This document shows positions 1-14,797 of a stretch of 15,369 bases of DNA, piece by piece (the first letter of the stretch is position 1; every line of letters begins with the position of its first letter). The stretch is from IMG/VR virus record IMGVR_UViG_2740892432_000001. One strand, given 5' to 3'. Position numbers and translations under genes: made by a program. Origin of the DNA: a virus. Taxonomy: Duplodnaviria > Heunggongvirae > Uroviricota > Caudoviricetes. The notes beneath the pieces are model-generated. The model worked only from the letters and a program-made list of their open reading frames with translations. It was not told the DNA's origin and searched no databases.

Positions 1-12
1 TGTCCATATTAC

Positions 13-801
13 GTGGGTAGGATCAAGATAGTCTATCGCCCATTACAAGAATTGTCACCGTATGCGCACAACGCCAGGACGCACAGTACTGAGCAGGTGG
101 CACAACTGGTAGAAAGTATTAAGCAATTCGGCTGGACTAATCCGGTGCTGATTGACGAAAAGGGCGAAATTATTGCGGGTCACGGTCGTGTTATGGCGGC
201 TGAAATGCTCAAAATGGATTCTGTTCCGGTCATTGTTCTGTCTGGCCTGACGGATGAGCAGAAAAAGGCGTACCGCCTGGCAGATAATCGCCTGCCGATG
301 AATGCTGGCTGGGATGAAGATCTGTTGCGGATGGAGCTGTCGGACCTAATCAATGCTGATTTTGATGTCTCCCTGACAGGCTTCATCCCGACAGAAATTG
401 ATGAACTGTTGACGGATGTTTTGCCCGGTACAGGAAATGAGGAGGAGCCGTATACGACGAAAATTGATACGCCTGTTTATGAGCCGTCGGGCGGTAAACC
501 GGATATCAGTGAACTGTACGACGATACGAAAACTCAGGAGCTGATCAGCCGGATACGTTCGGCGTCCCTTGAGCCTGATATTGAGAAATTCCTCCTGTGT
601 GCGGCAGAACGTCACACGGTGTTTAATTTCAGCAGAATTGCGGACTATTACGCTCACGCCCCCTCTGAAATTCAGTGTTTTTTCGAGGAGTCGGCGCTGG
701 TGATCATTGATTATCAGCAGGCTATTGAAAATGGATTTGTCCGGATGACGCAGCGCATGGTGGAGATCATGCATGGTGGTGAGGAGGAGGAATATGCGTG
801 A
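13..801 (+). CDS. ParB-like nuclease domain (ParB-N/sulfiredoxin fold) protein with an uncharacterised C-terminal domain; may be 5'-incomplete, since the frame is open to the window edge and the first in-window start is GTG at 13
   Basis: N-terminal ~100 aa (IKIVYRPLQELSPYAHNARTHS...IIAGHGRVMAAEML...AYRLADNRL) matches the ParB N-terminal domain pattern, including a GxGR-like motif. The C-terminal ~130 aa has no motif I recognise. Position just upstream of the terminase genes is common for ParB-like and HNH proteins in phages. Confidence 0.7.
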   Translation: MGRIKIVYRPLQELSPYAHNARTHSTEQVAQLVESIKQFGWTNPVLIDEKGEIIAGHGRVMAAEMLKMDSVPVIVLSGLTDEQKKAYRLADNRLPMNAGWDEDLLRMELSDLINADFDVSLTGFIPTEIDELLTDVLPGTGNEEEPYTTKIDTPVYEPSGGKPDISELYDDTKTQELISRIRSASLEPDIEKFLLCAAERHTVFNFSRIADYYAHAPSEIQCFFEESALVIIDYQQAIENGFVRMTQRMVEIMHGGEEEEYA

Positions 802-1726
802 TGATTTTTGCGCCTTTATTCTGACTCACGGGCGACCGGACAAAGTTCTGACTTACCGGACGTTGCGTCGTGCTGGCTATACCGGGAAAATTTTTATCGT
901 TGTTGATGATGAAGATAAGACACGGCATCAGTACATGGCTGAATTTGGTGAACAGGTGCTGGTGTTTTCCAAAGCCGATATCGCCAGTCGTTTTGACGAA
1001 GTCGATAATTTCTGTGACCGCCGCTCAATTTTTTACGCCCGTAATGCCTGTTTCGACCTGGCAAAACTGGTCGGGTGTAAATACTTCATTCAGCTCGATG
1101 ATGATTATCACGAGTTCCAGTTTCGGGTGGATCGCAACTATGACCAGGCCTATTTTCCGATAAGGAAACTGGATGCGATCCTTTCTGAAATGCTGGCGTA
1201 CTACGAATCAATACCTGCTCTTTCCATCGCTATGTCGCAGGGCGGGGATTTTCTTGGTGACAATGGCGGCCATGCTTCGTGGGTGAAACGCAAGGCAATG
1301 AACAGCTTTATCTGTTCGGTTGATCGACCGTTCTCATTCATGGGGCGCATTAACGAGGATGTGAATACGTACACGAATCTCGGTCGCTGTGGTGAATTGT
1401 TTATGACGATCGGTGCTGTCCAGTTAGGGCAGAAACAGACGCAGAAAAACAGCGGCGGAATGACCGAGCTGTATCTGGATTCCGGAACCTACGTTAAAAG
1501 TTTTTACTCCGTCATGTATGCGCCGTCGTGCGTAAAAATCTCACTGATGGGTGCCAGCCATAAACGCATTCACCATCAGGTCACCTGGAACAACGCTGCA
1601 GTAAAAATCCTTCACGAAAAATACAGGAAGAAGACACCCTGCATATCAATGGGGGTGACAAATGATTCCGTATTCGAAAGTCGAGTCTCTGGCAGCGTGC
1701 CGGATGACTGCACAACAAATCGCTGA
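794..1726 (+). CDS. Putative GT-A fold (GT2-like) glycosyltransferase, apparently cytoplasmic; target unknown
   Basis: ORF 773..1726 in the track. Preferred start is ATG 794, preceded by GGAGGAGGAA at 781-790. It has the GT2 N-terminal pattern (FILTHGRP ... KIFIVVDDEDKT) and a DxD-like motif (FIQLDDDY) about 100 aa in. No obvious transmembrane stretch. Family assignment is by motif only. Confidence 0.5.
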   Translation: MRDDFCAFILTHGRPDKVLTYRTLRRAGYTGKIFIVVDDEDKTRHQYMAEFGEQVLVFSKADIASRFDEVDNFCDRRSIFYARNACFDLAKLVGCKYFIQLDDDYHEFQFRVDRNYDQAYFPIRKLDAILSEMLAYYESIPALSIAMSQGGDFLGDNGGHASWVKRKAMNSFICSVDRPFSFMGRINEDVNTYTNLGRCGELFMTIGAVQLGQKQTQKNSGGMTELYLDSGTYVKSFYSVMYAPSCVKISLMGASHKRIHHQVTWNNAAVKILHEKYRKKTPCISMGVTNDSVFESRVSGSVPDDCTTNR

Positions 1727-1913
1727 CGTTCTGGATGTTGATCTGAACCGACTGAAAGAAAATCGGGAAGCAATGACAGATTTTTATGCGGCCATCCGTA
1801 AGGGCAGAGCGAAAGGTGAAGCCGAGTTACGAGCGGCATTGTTTAAGCTTGCCAGAAAAGGGGATGCCTTTGCTCTGCGCGAACTACTCAGGGTGGATAA
1901 AAATCAGGACTAA
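1662..1913 (+). CDS. Small helix-turn-helix protein upstream of the terminase; possible packaging-associated DNA-binding protein
   Basis: 83-aa ORF with a G-rich RBS (GGGGGTGA) before ATG 1662. Contains an HTH-like segment (MTAQQIADVLDVDLNRL). Overlaps the 3' end of the glycosyltransferase-like ORF by 65 nt. Confidence 0.45.
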   Translation: MIPYSKVESLAACRMTAQQIADVLDVDLNRLKENREAMTDFYAAIRKGRAKGEAELRAALFKLARKGDAFALRELLRVDKNQD

Positions 1914-1916
1914 CTG

Positions 1917-3011
1917 ATGAGCAGACCGGACTGGGGGGCGTTGCAGCAGGAGTATATTGCTGAATACACCCGCTCCGGTATATCTCCGGTGGCATGGTGT
2001 GAAGCAAGGGGACTGAATTACGCAACAGCCCGTCGTTACATCAAAAAAACTCCGAAAAATGCGCAGACAGAAATGTGCAAAACTGCGCAAAAAAGTGCGC
2101 AGAAAAAATCTGCGCAGACTGCACAAAAGCGGAACGAAAAATCTCAGGAAAAAAAGCCAGTATTCGATGCGGGCCTGAATGAGGGCGACGCGGAGGAATT
2201 TTCGTTCTGTCCCGATGAATTCGGCATTTCTGACCAGCAGGCTAAGTTTGCGATGCTTGTTGCTCAGGGTAAAAAGCCGACAGAGGCGTACCGACTAGCC
2301 GGTTATGAGGGGCAAGGTGCGACAGCTAACAGCAACGCCAGTCGTATGCTTAGAAATGCCAGGGTTTTTCGCGCTATCAGCTACTTCCGCAATCAGTACC
2401 AGAAACGCTATACCGCAGACCTGGATTTACTAGTGAGTCAGTTGATGGCTATTGTCCTGGCCGACCCCAATCAGCTTGCACAATTTCGCCGTGTTAACTG
2501 CCGTTATTGCTGGGGCGAGAATCATCTCTACCAGTGGCGCGATATAGCAGAATTCGACAAGGCAGCGGCGCAGGCTTCCAGAGATGGCAAACCCGAACCG
2601 GAATATGGAGGCCTCGGCTTTGTTGATAACGCCATACCCAATCCGGACTGCCCGAAGTGCTGCGGTGAGGGAACGGGACAGCTTTATATGGCTGATACCA
2701 CTCTGCTTGATGGGGATGCGCGGCAATTATATGCAGGGGCAAAATTCGGAAAATTCGGCGTTGAGATCCTGCTGGAGGATAAGGCTGCCGCCCGGCGTGA
2801 ATTGTTGCGTTTGTTTTCTGCTGGCGGGGCTTTATGTGCAGATAAACGGCTACAGGAACTGGAAATTGAACGGCGCAGAATGGAAAACCAGAAGCTGCGC
2901 AAAGAGATCGAAACGGTGGAAGATAATGAACATCCCCAGCCTGTGGCGATCAATATTAATGTGGTTGATGCCAGAGTAAGGAGTGATGAAGATGATCTCT
3001 CCGACGCTTAA
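1917..3011 (+). CDS. Terminase small subunit (TerS) with N-terminal HTH, low-complexity AQ/K linker and C-terminal Cys4 zinc-ribbon-like motif
   Basis: AGGA RBS before ATG 1917. Central segment (FAMLVAQGKKPTEAYRLAGYEG...ANSNASRMLRNARVFRAISYF) matches the terminase small subunit signature of the Terminase_2 type. Has CRYC...CPKCC cysteine pairs. Lies immediately upstream of and overlapping the large subunit. Confidence 0.7.
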   Translation: MSRPDWGALQQEYIAEYTRSGISPVAWCEARGLNYATARRYIKKTPKNAQTEMCKTAQKSAQKKSAQTAQKRNEKSQEKKPVFDAGLNEGDAEEFSFCPDEFGISDQQAKFAMLVAQGKKPTEAYRLAGYEGQGATANSNASRMLRNARVFRAISYFRNQYQKRYTADLDLLVSQLMAIVLADPNQLAQFRRVNCRYCWGENHLYQWRDIAEFDKAAAQASRDGKPEPEYGGLGFVDNAIPNPDCPKCCGEGTGQLYMADTTLLDGDARQLYAGAKFGKFGVEILLEDKAAARRELLRLFSAGGALCADKRLQELEIERRRMENQKLRKEIETVEDNEHPQPVAININVVDARVRSDEDDLSDA

Positions 3012-4293
3012 TGTGCCTCAGGCGCGATTTCTTTCAATGCCCCATAAATTTAAAGCCTATATTGCTGGTTTTGGCTCGGGCAAAACATGGGTTGGGTGTG
3101 GCGGCATATGCAAGGGGATTTGGGAGCATCCAGGTATAAATCAGGGATATTTTGCGCCAACGTATCCCCAAATTCGCGATATTTTTTACCCTACAGTGGA
3201 AGAAGTTGCTGCTGACTGGGGATTGAACGTAAAAATTAATGAGGGAAATAAAGAGGTTCACTTTTATTACGGACGCCAGTATCGGGGAACCACTATCTGC
3301 AGATCGATGGAGAAGCCACAAACGATCGTCGGTTTCAAAATTGGTAATGCGTTGGTGGATGAACTGGACATTTTGCCGAAGGAAAAAGCCAGAACGGCGT
3401 GGCGCAAGATAATTGCACGTATGCGTTATAAGATTGATGGACTTCGCAACGGTATTGACGTTACAACCACGCCGGAAGGATTCAAATTTGTCTACGAGCA
3501 GTTTGTTAAAGCCGTGCGTGAAAAAACAGAGCTGGCCTCACTGTATGGTCTGGTGCAGGCATCTACTTTCGATAATGAAAAGAACCTGCCAGCAGATTAC
3601 ATTCCTTCGCTTCTTGAATCATACCCTCCAGAGCTGATTAAAGCCTATCTTCGAGGACAGTTTACTAACCTGACAAGTGGTACTGTTTACCATCAGTTTG
3701 ACCGGAAACTGAATAATTGCGAAGAAGTGGAGCAGCCAGGGGAGCCGATTTATATTGGGATGGATTTTAACGTTGGAAAGATGGCGGGAATCGTCCATGT
3801 GCTGCGTTTGGGGCTTCCATGTGCGGTAACTGAAATCATCAATGCCTACGATACGCCGGATATGATCCGCATCATTAAAGAACGCTTCTGGCTGTATGAT
3901 GGGAATGATTACCGGAAAGTGAGGGAAATTTATATTTATCCAGATGCTTCCGGGGATTCCAGAAAATCAAGTAACGCAAGTACGACGGATATAGCCCAGC
4001 TTAAGCAGGCTGGTTTTAACGTTGTGGTGAACAGCTCGAACCCGCCAGTAAAAGATCGCGTTAACTCAATGAATGCAATGTTCTGCAATGCCAATGGTGA
4101 GCGTCGCTATAAAGTTAATGTGAAGCGTTGCCCGTTATATGCCGAATCTCTGGAGCAACAGGTCTGGGATGAGAAGGGGGAGCCTGATAAAAAATCTGGC
4201 AATGATCACCCGAATGATGCCGGAGGTTATTTCATCGTTAAGCAATTCCCTATTGTCAAACCGACCGGAAGAGTCACATCACTTCGGATTTAA
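2992..4293 (+). CDS. Terminase large subunit (TerL), ATPase/nuclease
   Basis: Walker A-like GFGSGKTW near the N-terminus; size and position are typical. The track ORF starts at GTG 2983. I prefer ATG 2992, 8 nt after the TAAGGAG RBS at 2977-2983, though 2983 or 2986 are possible. It overlaps the TerS stop. Confidence 0.8.
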   Translation: MISPTLNVPQARFLSMPHKFKAYIAGFGSGKTWVGCGGICKGIWEHPGINQGYFAPTYPQIRDIFYPTVEEVAADWGLNVKINEGNKEVHFYYGRQYRGTTICRSMEKPQTIVGFKIGNALVDELDILPKEKARTAWRKIIARMRYKIDGLRNGIDVTTTPEGFKFVYEQFVKAVREKTELASLYGLVQASTFDNEKNLPADYIPSLLESYPPELIKAYLRGQFTNLTSGTVYHQFDRKLNNCEEVEQPGEPIYIGMDFNVGKMAGIVHVLRLGLPCAVTEIINAYDTPDMIRIIKERFWLYDGNDYRKVREIYIYPDASGDSRKSSNASTTDIAQLKQAGFNVVVNSSNPPVKDRVNSMNAMFCNANGERRYKVNVKRCPLYAESLEQQVWDEKGEPDKKSGNDHPNDAGGYFIVKQFPIVKPTGRVTSLRI

Positions 4294-4295
4294 TT

Positions 4296-5702
4296 ATGGC
4301 TGATATATCAACACCCAACCTCGACTATAACGATATGCTGGAGGCGTGGGATATTAACGACGCACTGATGGGCGGTACGCTTGAAATGCGCAGGCAGGGG
4401 GAAAATTATCTCCCAAAATGGCCTAACGAAGATGAAGACGCTTATAAAAAACGCCTGTCTGTGGCTACGCTACTTCCTGTGTATGAAGAAAGCATCAAGC
4501 AAAATATTGGGCGCATATTTGCAGAGCCGACAGTATTGAGTGAGGAAACGCCGGCAAAAATCAGGGAATATGCAGAAAATATCGACATGGAGGGGAGCCG
4601 ACTGGATGTGTGGGCGCAGCAATTTTTCAGCCTCGCATTTCAGTATGGTGTGGCACATGCGCTGGTGGACTATCCACGAACGGATATGAAAGAGATTCGG
4701 ACAAAAGCCGATGAAAACGCGACCGGTGGTCGTCCGTACGTTACGATGCTGAATCCACGCCAGGTTATTGGATGGAAATCGAAAGTTGAAAAAGGGAAAG
4801 TTGTTCTCACTGATTTGCGTATAAAAGAGGTCATCATTATTGATGGTGATGATTTCGGGCAGAAGAAGGTGGAGCAGATCCGCCATATTATGCCCCGTCG
4901 AGTTGAAATTTATCGACGTAGCGAAGGCACTAATGGCGAATCTGTCTGGACGCTTCATGAGTCATGGAATACCAGCCGTGATGATATTCCTCTGGTAACA
5001 CTGTACACGAAGAAAACAGGATTTATGCGTGGTACACCGCCATTGCTTAATCTTGGCTTGCTGAATATCAAGCACTGGCAAAGCCAGAGCGAGCAGGACA
5101 ATATTCTTCATGTTGCCCGCGTTCCATTGCTGGTGGCCTACGGGCTGGACAGGAATGAAGAACTGACGGTTGGTGCATCCACCGCTACGATTTTTGAGGA
5201 CAGAACAAAAAATGGCCTCGAATATGTTGAACATAGTGGCGCAGCGATAGAATCTGGCGAAACATCACTTGAGAAGCTGGAAAATCAGATGCGTCATGCC
5301 GGCGCTAAACTTCTGCGTGCTGAAAATACATCCACCAAATCTGTTGATCAGACTAATGAAGAGCGAATGCAGGAAAACTCGCCGCTTTATACAATGGCGA
5401 ACTCCCTCGAAGATGCCCTCGATAATATTCTCCAGATAATGGCGGAATGGATCGGAGAGAGTTGCGGTGGCAATGTGGATGTGCGCACTGAACTGGATGT
5501 ATCTGCCCAGGTGTTTGACTCATCCTCCGCGCTGGCTGTTCAGTCATTGCGTCAGGGCGGTGATATACGTCAGATTGATGCGGTTCGGGTGTTGCAGGCG
5601 TTGAAATTTATCGATCAGGATTCCCGTCCAGAGGAAGTGATCGATGAATTAAAAAATCAGAGTGTAATGCTGATGGAAATCAATGATGCAAACCGTGAAT
5701 GA
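4296..5702 (+). CDS. Portal protein
   Basis: 468-aa ORF starting 2 nt after the TerL stop. Size and conserved position (TerL, portal, minor head protein) support the call. No specific motif verified. Confidence 0.65.
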   Translation: MADISTPNLDYNDMLEAWDINDALMGGTLEMRRQGENYLPKWPNEDEDAYKKRLSVATLLPVYEESIKQNIGRIFAEPTVLSEETPAKIREYAENIDMEGSRLDVWAQQFFSLAFQYGVAHALVDYPRTDMKEIRTKADENATGGRPYVTMLNPRQVIGWKSKVEKGKVVLTDLRIKEVIIIDGDDFGQKKVEQIRHIMPRRVEIYRRSEGTNGESVWTLHESWNTSRDDIPLVTLYTKKTGFMRGTPPLLNLGLLNIKHWQSQSEQDNILHVARVPLLVAYGLDRNEELTVGASTATIFEDRTKNGLEYVEHSGAAIESGETSLEKLENQMRHAGAKLLRAENTSTKSVDQTNEERMQENSPLYTMANSLEDALDNILQIMAEWIGESCGGNVDVRTELDVSAQVFDSSSALAVQSLRQGGDIRQIDAVRVLQALKFIDQDSRPEEVIDELKNQSVMLMEINDANRE

Positions 5703-6798
5703 ACGGCTGCGTGATGAATCAATTGCTCATGCAGTCTGGATATCCCGCTATAGCACTGGCGTGGCTGCCAGAATGGTGAAAATACTGAATGACAGCGATG
5801 CGGAACTTACTGCTCGCCTGCTGATAGCACTGGACAGCCTCGATCCAGGTAATTTTACCGTTAAGCGCCTGGAGTCACTTCTGGCGAGCGTCAGAGAGGT
5901 TAACCGCACTGCTATTAACAGCATGTTTACCAGTCTCTCCGGAGAGCTGAACGAGCTGGCAATTTATGAGGCTGGTTATCAGTTAAGTCTGTTTGATTCT
6001 ATGCTACCTGATTTTGTTGCTGATGTTCACCCTCTGGTTGGTATCTCTCCTGATGCACTTTATGCCGCTGCAATGGCGCGACCATTCCAGGGACGACTGC
6101 TCAGTGAGTGGGCCTCAGATCTTGAGGCGGATCGGCTCAGACGCATAACAAATACAGTGCGTCAGGGTTTTTTGCTGGGGGATACCAATGAGCAGATCGC
6201 AAGAAAAATTCGGGGACATGTCAGTAAGGGATTTCAGGATGGTGCATTGCAGATGAGCCGGGCTAATGCGGCCAGCATTGCAAAAACAGCGGTTGGACAT
6301 CTTGCTGCTACTGCCCGTGAGAGTTTTGCCAGCGCGAATAATGATTTGATTAAGGGTAAGCAATGGTTATCAACGCTTGATAATCGTACTACGCCACAAT
6401 GTCGAATCAGGGATCGCCTCAAATATACGCTGAATAATAAACCTGTAGGTCACAGCGTGCCTTATTTGCAGGGGCCGGGAAAAATTCATTTCTGCTGCCG
6501 CTCAACGGAAACGTTCATTCTGAAATCAGCGAAGGAACTGGGTATTGATGTTCGCGATATTTCCCCGGCTGAGCGGGCCAGCATGGATGGCGTGGTGGCC
6601 GGAGATACAACCTACAGGGAATGGTTTTTGCGTCAGCCTTACACCAGACAAAAACAGATTGTGGGGGAAACCCGAGCAAAGCTGATTCGGGATGGTGGTA
6701 TGTCGCCAGATGAATTTTACACCGATAAAGGCGAATGGCTGACGCTGAAGCAGCTCCGTGAGCGTGATGCACAGGTATTCAGAAAAGCAGGGATTTAA
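5683..6798 (+). CDS. Head morphogenesis / minor head protein (Mu gpF / SPP1 gp7-like)
   Basis: 371-aa ORF overlapping the portal stop by 20 nt. Position directly after the portal and overall composition are typical of the Mu F-like family. Followed by an intrinsic terminator. Confidence 0.6.
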   Translation: MMQTVNERLRDESIAHAVWISRYSTGVAARMVKILNDSDAELTARLLIALDSLDPGNFTVKRLESLLASVREVNRTAINSMFTSLSGELNELAIYEAGYQLSLFDSMLPDFVADVHPLVGISPDALYAAAMARPFQGRLLSEWASDLEADRLRRITNTVRQGFLLGDTNEQIARKIRGHVSKGFQDGALQMSRANAASIAKTAVGHLAATARESFASANNDLIKGKQWLSTLDNRTTPQCRIRDRLKYTLNNKPVGHSVPYLQGPGKIHFCCRSTETFILKSAKELGIDVRDISPAERASMDGVVAGDTTYREWFLRQPYTRQKQIVGETRAKLIRDGGMSPDEFYTDKGEWLTLKQLRERDAQVFRKAGI

Positions 6799-6817
6799 AT
6801 AAATCATTTATTACAAC

Positions 6818-6843
6818 AGGCTACCTTCGGGTGGCCTTTTTTA
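6818..6843 (+). terminator. Rho-independent terminator after the head morphogenesis gene
   Basis: AGGCTACC-TTCG-GGTGGCCT stem-loop (one G-U pair) followed by a T6 run, directly after the stop codon at 6798. Confidence 0.6.
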
Positions 6844-6902
6844 TTGCTGCGATCCGGATGGTGAGCAGCGTAACTGTCGGAAGACTTAAACCAGGTACTA
6901 AT

Positions 6903-7667
6903 ATGAAACTGAAAACGGTCGAGATTAACGGAAAACAATACGCAGAAATTGATACTGCTGGCCTGCCAGTTTATGTGCACGACGATGGTAAAGAAATTGG
7001 CTTCGATGCACCGCTGGCGACAAAAAAAATTACAGAGCTTAATGGCGAGGCAAAAAATCATCGCCTGGCTAAAGAAGCTGCAGAGGAAAAACTGGCTAAG
7101 TTTGCCGCTATCGAAGACCCGAAGAAGGCGATCGAGGCACTGGAAATGCTGTCAAAAATCGACCAGAAAAAGCTGCTCGATGCGGGACAGGTTGACCAGG
7201 TTAAGGCAGAAATTACGAAAAATTTTCAGCAGCAATTAGATGAAGAAAAGCAACGCTCTCAGATGCTGGAGAAGCAGCTTTACGATTCTATGATTGGCGG
7301 TAGTTTTGCGGGTTCAAAATATATTGCCGATAAAATTGCGATCCCGGCAGATTTATTACAAGCCCGCTTCGGGCAGGCATTCAAAGTGGAAGAAGGGAGG
7401 ATCGTTGCTTATGACGCTTCCGGCAACAAAATTTATTCCCGCGCGAAGCCTGGCGAACTGGCGCAGTTTGATGAGGCGCTGGAGTTCCTTGTCGAAAATT
7501 ACCCTCAGAAAGACTACATCCTGAAAGCCAGTGGCAACAATGGCGGCGGCTCCCGTCCGACACAGCATGATATTGGTCAGAAAACGATGAAACGCTCTGC
7601 TTTTGATGCACTGGATGTTGCAGGTAAGCAAAACGCATTGAAAGACGGTATCACAATCGTTGATTAA
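6903..7667 (+). CDS. Putative scaffolding protein
   Basis: Track ORF 6831..7667 begins with GTG inside the terminator. I prefer ATG 6903 (MKLKTVEINGK...). The product is charged, K/E/Q-rich and predicted helical, and sits between the minor head protein and the major capsid protein. Confidence 0.5.
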   Translation: MKLKTVEINGKQYAEIDTAGLPVYVHDDGKEIGFDAPLATKKITELNGEAKNHRLAKEAAEEKLAKFAAIEDPKKAIEALEMLSKIDQKKLLDAGQVDQVKAEITKNFQQQLDEEKQRSQMLEKQLYDSMIGGSFAGSKYIADKIAIPADLLQARFGQAFKVEEGRIVAYDASGNKIYSRAKPGELAQFDEALEFLVENYPQKDYILKASGNNGGGSRPTQHDIGQKTMKRSAFDALDVAGKQNALKDGITIVD

Positions 7668-7765
7668 CACATTTGTCAGCTTCCGGATGGGAGCTGGTGT
7701 CAGGGCTGGATAGCTCATTACTCCATCTATTCACAATTACGCAAATTTTTAAGGAATATTTAATT

Positions 7766-8905
7766 ATGGCTGGAAATACCCTGACCGGGTTGATCCCGAC
7801 TATTTATACCGCCCTGGATGTTGTATCCCGTGAGCAGGTAGGTTTTATCCCTGCGGTAGCAAAAAACGCAAAAGCTGACGCCGCAGCAAAAGATCAAACG
7901 GTAACCGCGCCAGTTGCGCCTGAGGCGAAAACCGAAGATATCGTACCGGGGCCGTCAGCTCCGAATACCGGTGATCAAAATATTGGCACTGTTGATGTAA
8001 AAATTACTAAATCCAAAATGGCACCGGTTAAATGGAATGGTGAAGAACAACTGGCTCTTGGCCCTTCAGGGACTTACAACACCATTCTGGCTGATCAGTT
8101 CAAGCAGGCTTTTCGCGCCCTTGCAAACGAGGTTGAGGCTGATCTTGGTGCGTTGTATTTCGGTGCTTCCCGCGCCGTGGGAACCGCAGGGACAACGCCG
8201 TTTGGTGTTAAAGATGATCTTTCTGATGCTGCTCTGGCTCGTCAGGTTCTGGAGGATAACGGCGCACCGACAACCGATCTGCAGATGGTGCTTGGCTCCA
8301 CTGCCATTGCTAATTTGCGCGGAAAACAGTCTGTATTATTTAAAGTGAATGAATCCGGCACTGAACAGCTACTGCGTGAGGGCGTGTTGGGGCGTCTGGA
8401 GGGATTCAATATTCACAGTTCGGCAGGTGTGAAACGAGCGCCAAAGGTTGCTGCAACTGGTTATCTCGTGAATGGAGAGAAAAAAGAAGGCGATGTTCTT
8501 ATTTCCATTGATACTGGTTCGGGGAGTATTTCTGCAGGTCAGATTGTTACGTTCGCTGGTGATCCGAATCAGTATGTTGTGGCAGCAGCGACCAGCAATC
8601 TGATTACTCTTGCAGCGCCCGGACTGCGTCAGGATCTGGCCGATGATACTGCCATCACAGTTGTTGGGGCCTTTACTGCAAATATGGCGTTTGATCGCAA
8701 CGCGTTTCTGCTGGCATCCCGTACTCCGGCAATGCCGGAAGGTGGCGATAATGCTGATGATGTAATGAATGTTACGGACCCGATTTCAGGGATTACGTTC
8801 CAGATTGCACTGTATCGTCAGTATCGCCAGGTGCGCTATGAAGTTGGACTGGCATGGGGTGTTTCATCAGTGAAGCCGGCACATGGTTGTCTGATTCTTG
8901 GTTAA
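7766..8905 (+). CDS. Major capsid protein
   Basis: Track ORF 7673..8905. Preferred start is ATG 7766 with an AAGGA RBS (MAGNTLTGLIPTIYTALDV...). About 380 aa, directly after the scaffold gene and followed by a strong terminator, the usual arrangement for a highly expressed coat gene. Confidence 0.7.
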   Translation: MAGNTLTGLIPTIYTALDVVSREQVGFIPAVAKNAKADAAAKDQTVTAPVAPEAKTEDIVPGPSAPNTGDQNIGTVDVKITKSKMAPVKWNGEEQLALGPSGTYNTILADQFKQAFRALANEVEADLGALYFGASRAVGTAGTTPFGVKDDLSDAALARQVLEDNGAPTTDLQMVLGSTAIANLRGKQSVLFKVNESGTEQLLREGVLGRLEGFNIHSSAGVKRAPKVAATGYLVNGEKKEGDVLISIDTGSGSISAGQIVTFAGDPNQYVVAAATSNLITLAAPGLRQDLADDTAITVVGAFTANMAFDRNAFLLASRTPAMPEGGDNADDVMNVTDPISGITFQIALYRQYRQVRYEVGLAWGVSSVKPAHGCLILG

Positions 8906-8915
8906 ACATTCAAAC

Positions 8916-8936
8916 GGGGCTTCGGCCCCATTTTTA
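8916..8936 (+). terminator. Rho-independent terminator after the major capsid gene
   Basis: GGGGC-TTCG-GCCCC hairpin followed by ATTTTT, 10 nt after the capsid stop codon. Confidence 0.7.
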
Positions 8937-8947
8937 ATGGGGGGCAT

Positions 8948-9124
8948 ATGGCCGGATTAACTAAAGAGCAAAGAGCACAGCGTGAAGCCGCACAAAAAAC
9001 GCAAATTGAGTTAGTGGTTATGGTGACCGATTATCAGATGTTTCCCGGCGCACCAACTATCGCTAATGTTCATCCTGATGAAGTTGACAACTGGAAGGCT
9101 ATGGGCTGGAAAACTCAGGAGTAA
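8948..9124 (+). CDS. Small hypothetical protein (58 aa) between the capsid and head-tail joining genes; below the ORF-track length cutoff
   Basis: Hand-translated as MAGLTKEQRAQREAAQKTQIELVVMVTDYQMFPGAPTIANVHPDEVDNWKAMGWKTQE, with a G-rich RBS (GGGGGG) upstream of ATG 8948. It fills an otherwise uncoded gap, and the next gene's RBS follows immediately. Confidence 0.4.
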   Translation: MAGLTKEQRAQREAAQKTQIELVVMVTDYQMFPGAPTIANVHPDEVDNWKAMGWKTQE

Positions 9125-9127
9125 CAC

Positions 9128-9523
9128 ATGATCACTTACGTGACCTGTGATGACGTTGATAATGCGTTTGGGAACGCCTGGACGAGTGAGAACGCTAAAA
9201 ATAAAGCTGTTTTAATGGCTAATGCCTGGCTTAATGGCTTCAACCTGAAAATTAACCCATCCCGTATTCCGGAAGAGGTAAAACTTGCGGGAGCATATGC
9301 AGCCAGAATTGCCTCATTCGGTAAGTTGTTTCAGCAGAAAAATGATTCTGGCGTTGTTATCAGTAAAGCCGTGTCGGCTGACGGGGTCAGTGTATCGAAA
9401 TCATTTTCTGAGTTGCCAGCAAACAGCACTGCATTGCTTGAACCCGATTTACAGCTTGCGATAGCACTGCTGAAACCGTACGGACTTAGTCGCTCACAAG
9501 TCAGGGTTGTGAGGGGGGGATAA
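9128..9523 (+). CDS. Putative head-tail connector / head completion protein
   Basis: 131-aa ORF with an AGGAG RBS 7 nt before ATG 9128. Size and position are typical of head-tail adaptor proteins. Family not verified. Confidence 0.45.
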   Translation: MITYVTCDDVDNAFGNAWTSENAKNKAVLMANAWLNGFNLKINPSRIPEEVKLAGAYAARIASFGKLFQQKNDSGVVISKAVSADGVSVSKSFSELPANSTALLEPDLQLAIALLKPYGLSRSQVRVVRGG

Positions 9524-9906
9524 TGGGGCTTCGTGAAGAGATTCAGTCAGAGGTTGCCGCTGCTTTTGATGAGGATTTAGCGGACGCCGTGAGTGATTTT
9601 TCTGGTTCTTACGTTACGCACCGGCACTGGGATCCTGTGACGGAAACTGGCGGCGAATCCACCGCAATCTATACCGGGCGAGGCGTGTTGACACGTTATA
9701 AGCTGGGCAGAATTGATGGGATTAATATTTTGCATGGTGACCTTAAATTAACCGCTCTGGTATGCGAGGTTACGGATAAACCAGCTGTCGACCATATTAT
9801 TGAGATTTATGATCCTGTATCAAGGCAGTTACAACGATACGAGGTAATTACAGCAAGTGTAGATCCTTCCGCATCAGTTTACTCTATCCAGTTAAGGAGA
9901 GCGTAA
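9523..9906 (+). CDS. Putative head closure / neck protein
   Basis: 127-aa ORF translationally coupled to the previous gene (TAATG overlap at 9521-9525) with a GGGGGGG RBS. Assigned by position in the head-tail joining cluster. Confidence 0.4.
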   Translation: MGLREEIQSEVAAAFDEDLADAVSDFSGSYVTHRHWDPVTETGGESTAIYTGRGVLTRYKLGRIDGINILHGDLKLTALVCEVTDKPAVDHIIEIYDPVSRQLQRYEVITASVDPSASVYSIQLRRA

Positions 9907-10287
9907 ATGGCAAAGGCATGGGATATAGAACCGTCAATATTTGCCGGGATGATTGAGGAAGATGTAGGGCTGAAGATTCGCTACATCGCTATTCAGATTC
10001 TTACTGCTATTGATATTGCTGCTCCGGTTGATACCGGACGTTTCAGAAATAACAACCTGGTGTCGTTACAGCATCCCGATTTTGGTATATCTGATAACGT
10101 GGATCCGAACGGTACGATTGCTGTTCAGCGTGGGATCGGGGTTATTTCGAAAGCTGCAAATTACGGGGTTATTTATATCCAAAATAACCTTCCTTATGCA
10201 GAGGCTCTTGAAAACGGTCATTCACAACAAGCGCCAACTGGCGTGTATGCCAACGCTTTTCATGGTGTTTTACAGGCTTACAAATGA
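9907..10287 (+). CDS. HK97 gp10-family protein (tail completion / head-tail joining)
   Basis: AAGGAG RBS and ATG immediately after the previous stop. Contains a PVDTGRFRNN motif resembling the DTGxLRxS signature of the HK97 gp10 family, recalled from memory. Confidence 0.55.
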   Translation: MAKAWDIEPSIFAGMIEEDVGLKIRYIAIQILTAIDIAAPVDTGRFRNNNLVSLQHPDFGISDNVDPNGTIAVQRGIGVISKAANYGVIYIQNNLPYAEALENGHSQQAPTGVYANAFHGVLQAYK

Positions 10288-10676
10288 AGTTTACTGAAAT
10301 CAGAAATACGGTTATTTCCAGAATGACGGCACAGACGATTATTGATGGAAAAGACGTATTGTATCCGAACGGGCCAACGTTCGATCCTTCCGGTAAGTTA
10401 ATCTGGGCGCGGTTAAGTAATATTCCCGGGCAGGCTGGAGTTAATGAAATTGGCGCGGGGCCGGTTGTTTATCGCACGGGGATAATCATTATTCAGTTAT
10501 TTGTCCCCGCAGGTTCTGGTTCAAAACTCATTACTGAGACAGCCGATAAATTGCGGGAACTGTTTGAGTTTCAGGATGACGATCGTCTCAGTTACCAGGC
10601 TGTTTCCTCAATAGCCGTCGGCGAAAAGAATGGCTGGTTCCAGCTTAATCTTCAAATTCCATATCACGCGCTCTAG
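10284..10676 (+). CDS. Putative tail terminator / tail completion protein
   Basis: 130-aa ORF coupled to the previous gene by an ATGA overlap at 10284-10287. Lies just upstream of the tail tube gene, the usual place for the tail terminator. Confidence 0.4.
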   Translation: MKFTEIRNTVISRMTAQTIIDGKDVLYPNGPTFDPSGKLIWARLSNIPGQAGVNEIGAGPVVYRTGIIIIQLFVPAGSGSKLITETADKLRELFEFQDDDRLSYQAVSSIAVGEKNGWFQLNLQIPYHAL

Positions 10677-10702
10677 CGCAATTAATGACATAGGAGGCTC
10701 CT

Positions 10703-11665
10703 GTGAGTTCAGGTGCAAAGGTTATCTCGGCATTTATCCGGGAGACAGTTGCAGGCACTACGCCAGCAAGTGGTGACTGGAGTTTATTAAAACGCACAAG
10801 CTGGGGAGTAAAACCCACCCAGAATAAAGGCGAAAATAATGAGATTGGTGGCTCCCGGATGGCTCAGGGGGCGACGCCTGGCACTGTGGATGTCGGCGGT
10901 GATGTTGGTACCAAATTTCGCTGGGGTCAACATGATGATTTTCTTGCATCCTGTTTCGGCGCGGAATGGTCAGGCGATTCTCTGACAATGGGGAATGAGC
11001 GAATAACATTTTCTCTGGCGACCTATGCGTCCGATGTCGGAATTGCCTCTGTCGTCAGAGGAGCGCAGGTTGGCTCATGGAAAATGCAGATCCCTAACGA
11101 CGGCGATATTACAGCGACCGTAACCTTTGCCGGGCTGGGCTGGGAATCAAAGGCCGATGATACGAATTTTATCAAAGGCGAACCTGTGGATAGTGCAGGA
11201 AAGTTACGCTATTCGTTTAAGGCGGTTTCAGCAGTAAGCCTGAATGGTGTTGCCGGAGGTAACGGTTTTTGTATCGACAGTTTTGATATTCAGTTCGATA
11301 ACAAACTCCAGACACAGCGTTGTATCGGGACTGGCTCGCCTTATGCAGGAGCAAATATTCCGACTACTTTTACACCGTCCGGTACGGTGACGCTTTCATG
11401 GTCTAAAGCCGCGTGGGAAATCTGGAGTAAAACACTGACTGGAGAAACAGTTCCGTTCAGCTTCACGCTTTCGAATGGAGAGGGGGCATACACTTTCAGT
11501 TTCCCGAAGGTTCAGGTGTCAGGTGAATGGCCTGATGGGGGTAATACTGACATTATCCAGGTTCAATTGAGCATTACCGCAGCAGATGAAGCACCTACGA
11601 TAACCAGAAAAAAATGCTCCCCGACTGCCGTGATCGCAAAAGCCAGTGCTGATGCGATTAGTTGA
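10703..11665 (+). CDS. Major tail tube protein
   Basis: GTG start 5 nt after a TAGGAGG RBS. 320 aa, G/T/S-rich and beta-rich, located between the head-tail joining genes and the G/GT chaperone pair. Confidence 0.6.
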   Translation: MSSGAKVISAFIRETVAGTTPASGDWSLLKRTSWGVKPTQNKGENNEIGGSRMAQGATPGTVDVGGDVGTKFRWGQHDDFLASCFGAEWSGDSLTMGNERITFSLATYASDVGIASVVRGAQVGSWKMQIPNDGDITATVTFAGLGWESKADDTNFIKGEPVDSAGKLRYSFKAVSAVSLNGVAGGNGFCIDSFDIQFDNKLQTQRCIGTGSPYAGANIPTTFTPSGTVTLSWSKAAWEIWSKTLTGETVPFSFTLSNGEGAYTFSFPKVQVSGEWPDGGNTDIIQVQLSITAADEAPTITRKKCSPTAVIAKASADAIS

Positions 11666-11677
11666 TTTTCCGTTATT

Positions 11678-11704
11678 CCCCCTGTGGTACTGCACTACAG
11701 GGGG
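11678..11704 (+). promoter_or_regulatory. Stable stem-loop without a U-tract downstream of the tail tube gene; possible transcript stabiliser or partial attenuator
   Basis: CCCCCTGT (11678-11685) pairs with ACAGGGGG (11697-11704) around an 11-nt loop. No T-run follows. Confidence 0.4.
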
Positions 11705-11713
11705 ACGCATTGA

Positions 11714-12175
11714 ATGAGGTTATGGATGTTTATTCTTAATCAGAAAATTATCATCGGTGGAGAACGCTGGTTTACGCCAATGAAGGACTTAAAACCTGTA
11801 GACGGGTTAAAACTGTTGGTGGCAAGCAGCGATAACGATCAGTATCGCTCCCGTAATGCATTAATCCGTCGTCACATTGAGAAAATGGATGCCAGTTTGC
11901 ACGTCGGAACGAAGGAGTTTGATATTTCAAAGGTTTCCGAGGTAGATTCTGTTGATGATTTACTCATTGATAATGCTGCTCGTTATCTGCTGAAAGACTG
12001 GAAAGGGGTTGGTGAACTGGTTAATGGTGCTGAGGTTGCACTGGAATATACGCCAGAACGAGGGATCGCGCTGCTTAAGCAGAATCCAGAGTTGTACTGG
12101 CAGATCCTTGCAGAAGCAGCCAGCATCGCCCAGGGTAAAGAGCAGCAGAAGCAGGATACGATAAAAAAGCCATAG
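11714..12175 (+). CDS. Tail assembly chaperone (lambda gpG-like)
   Basis: Acidic ~150-aa ORF between the tail tube and tape measure genes. It ends with the slippery heptamer A_AAA_AAG just before its stop, and an open -1 frame follows. The start is ambiguous (ATG 11714, 11726 or 11780). Confidence 0.6.
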   Translation: MRLWMFILNQKIIIGGERWFTPMKDLKPVDGLKLLVASSDNDQYRSRNALIRRHIEKMDASLHVGTKEFDISKVSEVDSVDDLLIDNAARYLLKDWKGVGELVNGAEVALEYTPERGIALLKQNPELYWQILAEAASIAQGKEQQKQDTIKKP

Positions 12176-12483
12176 CCGCCCAGCGGTGGTTATCGGAGTT
12201 CGGGGGAGAAAGGGGGGAAAAGGCAAGATGGAAGCGAGAAAAACTCAGGTTGCCACCGATACCGGAACCAGAAATAGACCCGGTGCTTAAGGAATTGTTG
12301 TACGCCTATTCGGTAATATCCCGTGCCCGACGTTATGCTGGAATGACCGGGGTGCCTTTGCCTTTATCTCTGACAGAGATAAATGAATATTTAGCCACTC
12401 ATCCGGTATTGATTGAGCGCGATGAGTTTGAAGCAGTGATCTTTGCACTGGATGACCAGTATTTTCAGGAGCAGTGTGTGTAG
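11714..12483 (+). CDS. Tail assembly chaperone -1 frameshift fusion product (lambda gpGT-like)
   Basis: The -1 frame is open from 12139 to the stop at 12483. Slipping at A_AAA_AAG (12163-12169) joins the gpG-like frame to it, giving ...IKK then AIAAQRWLSEFGGERGEKAR...FQEQCV. This is the conserved G/GT arrangement of long-tailed phages. Confidence 0.55.
12163..12169 (+). other. Programmed -1 ribosomal frameshift slippery site A_AAA_AAG
   Basis: The heptamer AAAAAAG is positioned in the zero frame as A AAA AAG (codons AAA 12164-12166, AAG 12167-12169), two codons before the chaperone stop (TAG 12173-12175). Confidence 0.6.
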
Positions 12484-12603
12484 TTGTTAATTACGTACAC
12501 TCTGTTACAGAGATGTGATGGTGTCTTTAATTAAATCGATGATGCTCCTGGAGAAAAGCATTGCGTGGCCTCGTAATCGCTATATCTACTATTATGTCGC
12601 CTG

Positions 12604-12630
12604 AAACCCACTTCGGTGGGCTTTTTGTTG
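12604..12630 (+). terminator. Rho-independent terminator-like hairpin between the chaperone and tape measure genes
   Basis: CCCAC-TTCG-GTGGG hairpin (12607-12620) followed by CTTTTTGTTG, then a GGAG RBS and the ATG at 12647. Likely a partial terminator lowering expression of the low-copy tape measure protein. Confidence 0.5.
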
Positions 12631-12646
12631 TCTGGAGTTTTAATAA

Positions 12647-14797
12647 ATGGCAGAGCAAACCTCGCGTCTCGCAATAATTATTGATAGCACTGGAGCAAAA
12701 AATAATGCTGACAATCTGACCTCCTCATTAGTCAAAATGACGCAGGCCGGGGAAACTGCTGCAAATAGCGCAGGGAAAGTGACTAAGGCAACAGAAGATG
12801 AGAAGAACGCGCTCGCAAAATTAAAAGCAGCTATTGATCCAGTTGGTGCCGCAATTGATACTGTCGGTCGACGCTATTCTGAATTAAAGAAATTTTTCGA
12901 TAAAGGGCTTATTGATAAAGAAGAATATGAATTTCTTGTCCGTAAACTTAATGAAACCACAGAGGAATTGAGCGGGGTTGCGCAAGCGCAGAGAGAAGCC
13001 GAGAAGGCCGGAAAACTTGCTGCCGCCCAGCAGGAAGCGCAGGCTCAGGCCTTTCAAAGAATGCTGGACAAGATCGACCCTCTGGCTGCGGCGCTAAGAA
13101 ATCTTGAACAACAGCAGGATGAACTTAATGCTGCGTTTGCATCCGGGAAAATAAATGGTTCTCAGTTTGAGAATTATAGCCGAAAAATGCAGGAAACACG
13201 GCGAGAGCTTACCGGAGAGGCTCAGGCAGAGCGAGAAGCAGCAAAAGCGCATGATGAACAGGTTGCTGCTTTGCAACGTCTGATTGCTCAACTTGACCCT
13301 GTCGGAACTGCTTTTAATCGTCTGGTAGAACAACAGAAACAGCTCAATGAAGCAAAAGCTAAGGGGATGCTCTCTCCTGAAATGTATGAGGAACTTTCTG
13401 GAAAACTTCGTGCTATGCGGAGTGAGCTTGAGGTTACTCAATCTCAATTAAGCAAAACCGGAATGTCGGCAAAACAAACGGCTTTTGCTATGCGCATGTT
13501 GCCTGCACAAATGACGGATATTGTTGTTGGGTTGTCCACTGGTCAGTCGCCTTTTATGGTGTTAATGCAGCAGGGCGGCCAGCTAAAAGATATGTTCGGT
13601 GGGATTGGCCCGGCGATCAAAGGTGTTGGTTCTTATGTGCTGGGATTAATTAATCCTTTTACCCTGGCCGCAGCAGCCGTTGGCGTCTTAGGGCTGGCTT
13701 ACTATAAAGGCTCTCAGGAGCAGGACGAATTTAATAAATCTCTTATTCTTACCGGAAATCAGTTGGGGACAACCAGCGGGCAATTGGCCGATATAGCTCA
13801 ACGTGCCGGGAATGCGGCTGATTCGACAACTGGCGCTGCGGCGGCAGTATTAAACCAGCTTGTGCGTTCGGGAAAGGTAGCGAGCAGTTCGCTGGAGCAA
13901 GTGACGACAGCGATAGTAAAAACGAGCGAAGTAACAGGAATATCAACCGAACAACTGGTTAATGACTTCAATGAAATTGCAAAGGATCCTGTCAGTGCCA
14001 TATCAAAACTTAATGATCAGTACCATTTTCTGACAATTGCGACTTATAACCAGATTAAGGCGCTACAGGATGAAGGGAACCAGCAGGAGGCCGCCCGCAT
14101 TGCGACAGAAGCATACTCATCCTCAATGATCCAGCGCACCAACCAGATTAAAGAAAATCTTGGTTATCTTGAGACTGCATGGAAAGCTGTCGCAGACTCC
14201 GCAAAATGGGCATGGGATTCCATGCTGGACATTGGCCGTGAGGCCTCCCTTGATCAAAAAATCTCAGATGTTCTCCGTCAAATTGATGAAATAGAAAAAA
14301 ATACCCAACCCGGAGTTTTCGGGTTAGGTGGCATTGGAGATGGCGGAGCTCAAAATAAAAGGCTGGCACGATTAAAGCAGCAATTGGGCGTACTTCAAGC
14401 AGAAAAAATTGGTGCGCATACCCATAGTTTAAGTGGCAGCACGAATGCAGCTGGTAATCACAGCCATAGAGATGGCCGTCGATTTAACCCCAGTGTTTTT
14501 AAAGATACTTATCAATATGGTTATACAAGCTCAGGTCAAAATACCTGGGGTGTACAAGGCTCAGTAGGTATGTCTACGGGGTGGTTAGCTAATACCAGTA
14601 CAGATGGTAATCATAGCCACTCACTGTCCGGCACAGCAGCATCTGCAGGTGCACACGCGCATACTGTCGGTATTGGTGCTCATACGCACTCCGTTGCGAT
14701 TGGTTCACATGGACACACCATCACCGTTAACGCTGCTGGTAACGCGGAAAACACCGTCAAAAACATCGCATTTAACTATATTGTGAGGCTTGCATAA
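12647..14797 (+). CDS. Chimeric protein: lambda gpH-like tail tape measure N-terminal region (about aa 1-585) fused in frame to a side-tail-fibre C-terminal HxH tip domain (about aa 586-716)
   Basis: The N-terminal part is coiled-coil rich and contains the gpH-family block [38 protein letters not shown]. From about nt 14400 the sequence switches to repeated GxHxHS motifs ([40 protein letters not shown]) and ends ...[18 protein letters not shown], matching the lambda Stf C-terminus as I recall it. Confidence 0.6.

Follow-up and report, generated by a model that had tools for sequence, protein, structure and literature searches.

The 15,369-nucleotide (nt) stretch analyzed here, which we refer to as the window, came from IMG/VR virus record IMGVR_UViG_2740892432_000001 (Caudoviricetes). 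Near its 5' end, an initial annotation had placed the genes of a ParB-like protein and a soluble GT-A-type glycosyltransferase (GT) just upstream of the terminase. The two co-directional open reading frames (ORFs), at 13..801 and 773/794..1726, were confirmed, and the small and large terminase genes did follow them. From the data presented below, we infer that the two genes constitute an obligate two-protein module, the members of which would interact physically. The features of the pair were as follows.

13..801, plus strand: ParB-like partner protein, the full-length form of K-12 YnaK (ORF list; ParB_N, phrog_620).
25..417, plus strand: ParB/Srx N-domain (ParB-N) with a nucleoside triphosphate (NTP)-binding-type fold, residues ~5-135 (PF02195, Foldseek, conserved columns).
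451..486, plus strand: linear motif Y-T-x-K-I-x-x-P-x-Y-E-P, Y147 to P158 (conserved columns; a low-confidence stretch of the model).
487..798, plus strand: helical C-terminal domain, FLxxAAxRHxxFNxxxIAxYYAHA...SALVIID...AIxNG (alignment; adjacency to the GT).
778..801, plus strand: predicted translational-coupling junction, a GGTGAGGAGGAGG Shine-Dalgarno sequence and then ATG 794 over TGA 799-801.
794..1726, plus strand: GT-A glycosyltransferase of the TAGT family, 310 amino acids (aa) (PF20691, phrog_842, alignment A1, AlphaFold2 [AF2] and Foldseek).

The product of the downstream gene (gene 2) matched Pfam family PF20691 (TAGT, TET-associated glycosyltransferase) with a score of 122.3 bits (cut-off, 27.5; E 3.5e-35), with residues 8-222 aligning to positions 4-205 of the 205-position profile, and it matched phrog_842 with an E value of 6.6e-104. 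In an alignment of 18 homologues with 60-80% identity (A1), 78 columns were invariant, including R14, D102-D104 (the DDD motif, nt 1097-1105), and E188-D189. These residues fit the R...DDD...ED[Y/F] active-site signature that was reported for phage GT-A 5-hydroxymethylcytosine (5hmC) transferases and JGT (bioRxiv 10.1101/2023.12.21.572611). The AF2 model of the GT was confident at residues 1-180, and Foldseek searches against the PDB matched it only to GT-A nucleotide-sugar enzymes, namely, SpsA, K4CP, glycogenin, and SunS (E ~1e-5). No transmembrane-like segment was present (maximum KD19, 1.08), and the NCBI label for the protein was "GREB1-related protein." Profile, motif, and fold all identified the product as a nucleotide-sugar transferase, which bore out the soluble GT-A enzyme of the initial annotation. 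Gene 2 is a predicted cytoplasmic, metal-dependent (DXD-type) GT-A nucleotide-sugar transferase of the TAGT/JGT lineage.

Every aligned homologue of the GT began with MRDDFCAFIL, which corresponded to ATG 794 and a length of 310 aa. Thus, the earlier preference for ATG 794 was correct, but the reported length of 317 aa was not, and the 8-nt separation of the genes turned out to be an 8-nt overlap at 794-801 (ATGCGTGA), which was preceded by the Shine-Dalgarno sequence GGAGGAGG. The overlapping ATG and TGA suggested translational coupling of the pair, and abutting or overlapping genes were common to most of the loci examined below. The last ~25 aa of the GT (~1640-1726) were a nonconserved, E. 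coli-specific tail that overlapped the next ORF; most relatives were ~288 aa and ended ~22 residues earlier.

The upstream gene (gene 1) encoded 262 aa if GTG 13 was used as the start, and the native form of the protein was 263 aa and began with MSEKLKIVYRP. The ParB-like N domain proposed previously held up: the protein scored 29.3 bits against ParB_N PF02195 (gathering score, 26.3; E 9e-7), it matched phrog_620 with an E value of 2e-89, and the top Foldseek matches to the ParB-N model were the CTP-binding proteins Noc 7nfu, ParB 6sdk and 7bnr, PadC 6ryk, and KorB 8qa9 (E 6e-7 to 1e-4). A BFVD structure search with the gene 1 model returned ParB-N matches only. The conserved ParB-N residues (window numbering) were N20-x-R22, S35, G56-H-x-R59, and D91-N92, among which N20, R59, and D91-N92 were invariant in alignment A4. 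In a set of 46 sequences drawn from many phyla, the N, R, G-h-x-R, and DN positions were at least 80% conserved despite a mean domain identity of 30%. The nucleotide-binding residues (Box I N/Q-x-R, Box II G-x-x-R, and Box III N) were therefore kept in ParB-N, and nucleotide binding itself is a prediction from these residues.

The N-domain fold and nucleotide-contact residues of gene 1 were shared with the chromosomal and plasmid ParB proteins of ParABS systems, Noc, and KorB. Unlike a ParABS ParB protein, the gene 1 product fell below the cut-off of the partition-ParB equivalog TIGR00180 (38.1 bits versus 58.45), and no helix-turn-helix (HTH) DNA-binding domain, ParA gene, or parS-like repeat was detected. 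Specifically, no ParA family was among those listed for the neighboring genes, and none was annotated in vB_EcoS-666R9 (ON470614), a Rac-like lambdoid Escherichia phage that was 99.8% identical, without gaps, to window positions 25-14411. Pfam detected no nuclease domain (HNH and the like) in gene 1, and the name "ParB-like nuclease" is historical. ParB-N residues 5-143 did match DNA methyltransferase fusions (phrog_498, E 2e-50; PADLOC MTase_II, E 1.5e-38), and such a fusion was the sole match when a role in defense systems was checked with PADLOC. In K-12, ynaK is a remnant of gene 1, a ParB-N fragment homologous to window positions 25-285. The literature on K-12 ynaK consisted of an overexpression screen of this 5' remnant, in which overexpressed YnaK raised the MIC (minimum inhibitory concentration) of six antibiotics (2026 screen, PMC12924614).

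As a check of whether the two genes are conserved as neighbors, a degenerate-pattern scan with one genome per species was used, and it yielded 77 loci with GT identities of 39-100%. The sources were Enterobacterales, Bacteroidota, Clostridia, Veillonella, Desulfovibrionaceae, Planctomycetota, Acidobacteriota, Alphaproteobacteria, Saccharibacteria, and others. Five loci were not evaluable because the GT was cut by a contig end or was present as fragments; the evaluable loci spanned Proteobacteria, Bacteroidota, Bacillota, Desulfobacterota, Planctomycetota, Acidobacteriota, and Saccharibacteria. In all 72 evaluable loci, the partner gene was located directly upstream of the GT gene on the same strand, usually overlapping it. 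The linkage was also seen in the reverse direction, as five of five sampled partner proteins directly preceded a TAGT-family GT. The pair was followed by terS and terL in Lactobacillus phage phi jlb1 (jlb1_024/025), was arranged in L. delbrueckii phages as in E. coli, and was found in the archaeal Haloarcula virus HHTV-2 (gp21/gp22). When the ORFs in the loci were clustered, only the GT family (68 loci) and the partner family (62 loci) were universal. The next clusters were two large-terminase families (20 and 15 loci), portal (14 loci), and small terminase (14 loci). When a third conserved gene was sought by BLAST clustering, no family apart from the pair and the packaging genes exceeded 9 of 68 loci.

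Some loci contained multiplied versions of the pair. Tandem module-GT, module-GT arrays were found in two loci (L058, 6460-8906; L070, 17-3267), and one ParB-like gene followed by two GT genes was found in two others (L053 and L078). Two GT paralogues per virus were thus present in L058, L070, L053, and L078, as well as in L029 (2970-5117). The paralogues hint at stepwise building of a glycan and at specificity for cognate partners.

The part of gene 1 that accounted for this linkage appeared to lie downstream of ParB-N. In the linear motif, Y147, T148, K150, P154, Y156, E157, and P158 were invariant in A4, and the motif was also found in stand-alone partners. It was located in a stretch (residues 135-168) in which the predicted local distance difference test (pLDDT) score was <50, a short strand excepted. 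The helical domain of ~110 aa that followed constituted, with the motif, the module that universally partners this GT subfamily: the module adjoined the GT in 71 of the 72 evaluable loci, and there was one partial case in addition. ParB-N was fused to the module in 52 of these loci and split from it in 3 or 4, and the module alone was detected in 16, of which ~8 were true stand-alone modules and the rest were contig-end cuts or had divergent N termini. "Short ParB" ORFs of ~133 aa in some loci aligned to gene 1 residues ~145-255 and not to the ParB domain. In an exhaustive search of 1.84 billion representatives, 1180 clusters contained the module, which was always C-terminal, and ParB-N was present in 131 of the best 149 scored module clusters.

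Conservation and divergence followed the same pattern. Among 41 diverse loci, ParB-N had a mean pairwise identity of 30%, the module 45%, and the GT 52%, and the GT identity matrix correlated more closely with that of the module (r 0.63) than with that of ParB-N (r 0.42). Because the module occurred alone beside the GT, was better conserved than ParB-N, and diverged in step with the GT, sequence comparison identified the C-terminal domain, and not ParB-N, as the true conserved partner of the GT. Linkage in both directions, reading frames that overlap, and divergence that is correlated together argued for a two-protein machine. The module itself had no significant Pfam, PDB-sequence, or PADLOC match. 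A subthreshold Pfam match to PF23887 (mycobacteriophage L5 gp47-like; E ~0.03-0.05) over the IAxYYAHA region recurred in three independent partner-module sequences (window positions 445-798 and stand-alone homologues), and this similarity could reflect a distant relationship or chance.

We also examined the genes around the pair, covering ~8-10 kb on each side in most loci. The terminases located downstream came from at least four or five families unrelated to one another (Terminase_6N in 17 loci, Terminase_3 in 13, T7-type in 6, GpA in 3, and TerL_ATPase in 3), and the genes located upstream were heterogeneous. Loci with the stand-alone module had PolA, beta clamp, RecA, and primase genes as neighbors, and the copy in Vibrio phage pv27 was located between primase, exonuclease, and helicase genes. 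A few loci contained sugar-nucleotide enzymes. No primary alpha- or beta-GT was among the families listed for the Pfam-scanned neighborhoods or in the annotated contigs, and none emerged from the otherwise unannotated proteins of ON470614.

Three side observations were made in these neighborhoods. Besides the pair, the viruses of L166 (2444-6276) and L168 (17837-20316) contained extra, unrelated GT genes (GT4, GT2, and TOD1/MUCI70-like), which were located beside capsid genes. A radical-SAM gene was located 3' of the GT gene in L162 and three other loci. A dATP/dGTP diphosphohydrolase N-domain protein (PF18909) was encoded in two replication-module loci (among L029, L033, L058, L070, L074, L025, and L011); diphosphohydrolases of this type are associated with 2-aminoadenine genomes.

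The reading that we favored, with moderate confidence, was that the pair is a late-acting two-protein DNA glycosylation module in which the ParB-like protein is a loader or activator of the enzyme on DNA. DNA was inferred to be the target because of the lineage of the enzyme, the ParB-N subfamily that is fused elsewhere to methyltransferases, and the packaging or replication context. In addition, a mean GT identity of ~52% in loci ranging from E. coli to Haloarcula pointed to a universal acceptor rather than a host-surface or virion target. In the proposed mechanism, the partner module (the YTxKIxxPxYEP motif and the helical domain) would bind the GT; in most temperate phages, this module comes as a fusion with a ParB/Srx domain of NTP-binding type, from the methyltransferase-fusion subfamily. 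The ParB-like protein would load or hold the transferase on replicated double-stranded phage DNA, and the DNA would be glycosylated after replication, around the time of packaging (the pair is predicted to lie in the late transcription unit of intact lambdoid relatives). The likely benefit would be shielding of the DNA from host nucleases.

In terms of known enzymes, the GT resembled the T2/T6 beta-glucosyl-HMC-alpha-glucosyltransferase and the phage 5hmC GT-A enzymes, with which it shared the Pfam family, the GT-A fold, the R...DDD...ED residues, a phage origin, and a cytoplasmic location. The T2/T6 family member adds a second glucose to glucosyl-5hmC (PMC13390438, PMC13216743). The GT studied here was only ~22-24% identical to the TAGTs of T4-like phages (Aeromonas phages 65 and Ah1) and, unlike the T2/T6-type TAGT, it was found with no alpha-/beta-GT, TET/5mYOX, or hydroxymethylase partner; instead, it had an obligate partner with a ParB-like domain and/or the C-terminal domain (CTD). 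It corresponded to the "solitary TAGT" class, which was found in 288 of 753 phage genomes and whose role was left open (2026 paper, PMC13216743). Both the literature and the NCBI name place the kinetoplastid base-J glucosyltransferase (JGT) and GREB1 in the GT superfamily of this enzyme. JGT requires 5-hydroxymethyluracil made by JBP, GREB1 acts on protein, and neither has a ParB-like partner.

A precedent for the ParB-like component was provided by a phage ParB homologue, ParB176, that consists of a nucleotide-binding domain (NBD), a linker, and a CTD, has no DNA-binding domain, and is required for the activity of the thymine dioxygenase 5mYOX176 on double-stranded DNA (O'Toole et al. 2026, PMC13229309). 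The gene 1 product had the same architecture (NBD, linker, and CTD, with no HTH domain detected), and the partner gene adjoined that of the predicted modifying enzyme in 72 of 72 evaluable loci. The ParB-dependent modification enzymes act post-replicatively and are likewise encoded next to the ParB gene, often near the terminase. The conserved residues N14, R16, S29, and R56 of ParB176 were equivalent, with similar spacing, to N20, R22, S35, and R59 of gene 1. The two systems differed in that the client here was a glycosyltransferase and not a dioxygenase and in that a strongly conserved motif marked the linker here, the linker of 5mYOX-ParB proteins having been described as nonconserved. ParB-N/DNA methyltransferase fusions, which are reported to be enriched in prophages (Kaljevic et al. 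2025, PMC12704722), contain the same ParB-N subfamily; here the enzyme was a separate protein that would be recruited via the C-terminal domain, and the predicted reaction was glycosyl rather than methyl transfer.

The proximity of ParB genes to phage GTs and 5mYOXs had been noted in earlier surveys, and Iyer et al. 2013, as relayed in PMC8256090 and PMC13229309, proposed that ParB proteins direct modification enzymes during packaging. In the literature searched, which did not extend to Iyer et al. 2013 itself, no description of a ParB and TAGT or other glycosyltransferase pair was found. Relative to that literature, the obligate TAGT-adaptor pairing, the lack of a detectable oxidase, and the spread to an archaeal virus were new, and the components were of known kinds.

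Several points weighed against the DNA glycosylation reading. No TET/JBP (PF12851) or thymidylate synthase (ThyS)-type hydroxymethylase was among the families listed for the Pfam-scanned neighborhoods or in the annotated contigs; in these group scans, the 25 commonest families per set were listed, and single occurrences may hide. When the proteins of vB_EcoS-666R9 (38.7 kb) that were at least 120 aa and had no clear annotation were scanned with Pfam, no oxidase or hydroxymethylase candidate emerged, and two of its proteins (167 and 189 aa) had no Pfam match at all. Because no source of hydroxymethyl-pyrimidines was found, the known acceptors of the family were unaccounted for, and we know of no precedent for direct glycosylation of canonical DNA. 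A search for parS-like or palindromic repeats over window positions 1-2000, and over the corresponding part of the phage, turned up nothing beyond short repeats at chance level. The structural models were also of limited quality: the AF2 models of both proteins were only moderate (pLDDT scores of 64 and 67.5), confidence in the partner domain was too low for fold assignment, and the partner domain and the C-terminal third of the GT were poorly resolved. As for the literature, GREB1, a member of the same superfamily, glycosylates a protein (PMC7968844); GT-A contigs without 5mYOX or ThyS were considered less obviously DNA-modifying in a 2023 preprint (bioRxiv 10.1101/2023.12.21.572611); and ParB176 mutants with substitutions in nucleotide-binding residues still activated the dioxygenase, which left the role of NTP obscure (PMC13229309). 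The DNA-targeted glycosylation that was among the possibilities raised in the initial annotation was favored as a proposal, and no enzyme that would supply an acceptor base was found nearby.

A further proposal, which we advanced tentatively and considered somewhat unlikely, was that the pair is self-sufficient and needs no prior base oxidation or hydroxymethylation. In this case, a sugar would be placed directly on canonical DNA, or a glycan would be placed on the DNA-bound ParB-like protein, and the previously unnamed ~110-aa domain, as a dedicated adaptor, would link the GT-A enzyme to the ParB nucleotide switch. Such a system would occur in many temperate bacteriophages and in at least one virus of archaea, and its expression would accompany that of the packaging genes. 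To our knowledge, direct sugar transfer to canonical DNA is not a chemistry known for any glycosyltransferase.

Whatever the function of the family, the copy in the window has its own history. The features that flank the pair were as follows.

1..24, plus strand: right end of IS3 (terminal 24 nt), adjoining codon 6 of the ParB-like gene and replacing its native start codon and ribosome-binding site.
1662..1913, plus strand: small ORF, part of the small terminase subunit by resemblance (phrog_309, E 8e-23; annotated in ON470614).
1917..4293, plus strand: small (364 aa) and large (436 aa) terminase subunits (Pfam Terminase_2, Terminase_6N, and Terminase_6C).

The 24-mer at window positions 1-24 was found, identically, 6 nt past the IS3 transposase coding sequence in two other E. 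coli genomes (L169, 775-798; L170, 4578-4601), and every window match in E. coli and in phages started at position 25. The start codon assigned in the initial annotation, GTG 13, is therefore inside the IS3 right end. The native MSEKL start and the region upstream of it were lost, the five N-terminal ParB codons were replaced by IS3 sequence, and the frame was open up to the window edge. The initial annotation had missed this truncation, as well as the TAGT/JGT family of gene 2, the precedent for ParB-assisted modification, and the C-terminal partner, although its domain calls were sound. The IS3/ParB junction was found in 0 of 5426 complete E. coli genomes. In strain E1, which was otherwise identical, IS3 was located ~3.4 kb further upstream, before the holin gene. 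This location suggested an IS3-adjacent deletion in the source of the window, through which the holin, endolysin, Rz, and trkG genes were probably lost. Beyond position 14411, the window departed from the intact phage: the tape-measure gene was joined to tail-fibre 3'/tfaR sequence, as in E. coli strain E1, and the tape-measure ORF (12647..14797) encoded 716 aa, compared to 1077 aa in ON470614. The tail-tip genes were deleted, and the prophage of the window is defective.

In the intact relative, the gene order was Q, holin, endolysin, Rz, trkG, ParB, GT, terS, terL. Thus, the pair was at the head of the packaging block and not, as had been stated, at the 5' end of the late operon. A promoter and terminator scan identified no convincing promoter ahead of the ParB gene. 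It did identify one strong terminator-like hairpin after the trkG moron of the intact phage (L001, 19935-19958; 10-bp stem, 7 GC pairs, and a T-rich tail), 28 nt before the ParB start. Expression of the pair would then need antiterminated late transcription. The small ORF that follows the pair encoded 83 aa from ATG 1662 or 69 aa from ATG 1704 (the annotated start), was kept in enterobacterial loci only, and matched the middle of phrog_309. In the 364-aa protein (1917-3011), the Terminase_2 domain comprised residues 122-321, and this protein and the small ORF may represent a split or two-part small terminase. Further downstream, a 371-aa protein (5683-6798) was labeled "NAD+--asparagine ADP-ribosyltransferase" in ON470614; Pfam detected just Phage_Mu_F (head morphogenesis) at residues 154-275.

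Because the native ParB start was lost and the prophage carries deletions, the window copy may be silent. It is quite possible, if somewhat short of probable, that the module of the window is an inactive relic, IS3 having removed the lysis region upstream along with the start of ParB, and the tail genes having been lost. The IS3 end at 1-24, a junction that no genome in the collection shared, and the departure from the intact phage after 14411 (from tape measure to tail-fibre/tfaR) are all consistent with this idea. In contrast, both frames were otherwise intact and 98-99% identical to widespread alleles, merely five N-terminal codons were exchanged, and expression would still be possible via GTG 13 or via read-through from IS3, as the frame was open to the edge. 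As for the alleles in E. coli at large, DNA of the pair was found in 1569 of the 5426 complete genomes, and coverage was at least 80% (i.e., the pair was complete) in 865 (~16%).

Among the alternatives to DNA glycosylation as the function of the family, glycosylation of a protein survived best, and we considered it unlikely. Here, the sugar would be placed, most economically, on the Tyr or Thr residues of the partner's own YTxKIxxPxYEP motif, in a glycogenin- or GREB1-like manner, or else on another DNA-bound protein, and the ParB-like protein would be a substrate or scaffold. GREB1, which O-GlcNAcylates a protein (PMC7968844), and glycogenin, which was among the structural matches, provide models for such a reaction. 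The invariant and probably unstructured Tyr/Thr/Pro motif co-occurred with every GT, and the partner was the sole other component kept across all hosts, so the universal-acceptor argument fits a protein target as well; the failure to find an acceptor base for the DNA role also counts in its favor. Yet a docking peptide would explain the conserved linear motif equally well. Moreover, DNA is the substrate of those family members from phages and kinetoplastids that have been characterized, DNA methyltransferases are the fusion partners of this ParB-N subfamily elsewhere, and the genomic contexts were DNA replication and packaging. The loci with two GT genes and one partner gene (L053 and L078) fit extension of a glycan on either kind of acceptor and did not discriminate between the two.

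It seemed more doubtful still that the pair has the classical TAGT role, in which 5-hydroxymethyl-pyrimidines supplied by an unrecognized or distant oxidase or hydroxymethylase would be glycosylated or would have a sugar on them extended. This is the activity of the characterized members, and an oxidase could have been overlooked, since thousands of 5mYOX-like sequences lack a TET/JBP Pfam annotation (PMC13229309), the group scans gave the commonest families, and coverage in most loci was ~8 kb per side. However, no candidate emerged from the scanned proteins of the near-complete 38.7-kb ON470614 record, no further gene family apart from packaging genes occurred in more than 9 of 68 loci, and a C5-methyltransferase cluster was present in just 7 loci.

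The initial annotation had also raised the possibility that gene 1 encodes a packaging accessory nuclease and gene 2 an unrelated moron. In this reading, the ParB-like protein would act together with the terminase, and the GT might modify, for example, surface polysaccharide or virions. The position directly upstream of terS and terL, the historical nuclease name, and the other GT genes near capsid genes in L166 and L168 would suit it. We judged this reading highly improbable because the linkage to the GT was absolute and held with unrelated terminases, in replication modules far from a terminase, and where ParB-N was absent. In addition, the GT lacked a membrane segment, and its conservation across unrelated hosts was too high for an acceptor on the host surface. 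Surface-polysaccharide and virion-protein targets, which had been suggested as well, were rejected as unlikely on the same grounds of GT conservation (~52% identity across differing hosts and structural modules) and absence of membrane segments.

Our results indicated that the TAGT subfamily examined here was never solitary: it always occurred with a specific partner domain, which was usually fused to ParB, and the pair traveled with packaging or replication genes across bacterial phyla and in one archaeal virus. The question of the solitary TAGTs thus becomes a concrete two-gene problem in E. coli, in which ~16% of finished genomes contain a complete pair. If DNA is the target, as in the reading that we favored, then many temperate phages and prophages would carry an unmeasured DNA modification, with consequences for the evasion of restriction and other defenses, for sequencing artifacts, and for phage engineering, and the newly found role of ParB proteins as activators of oxidases would extend to glycosyltransferases as well. 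With a protein as the target, the pair would represent a prokaryotic-virus counterpart of GREB1.

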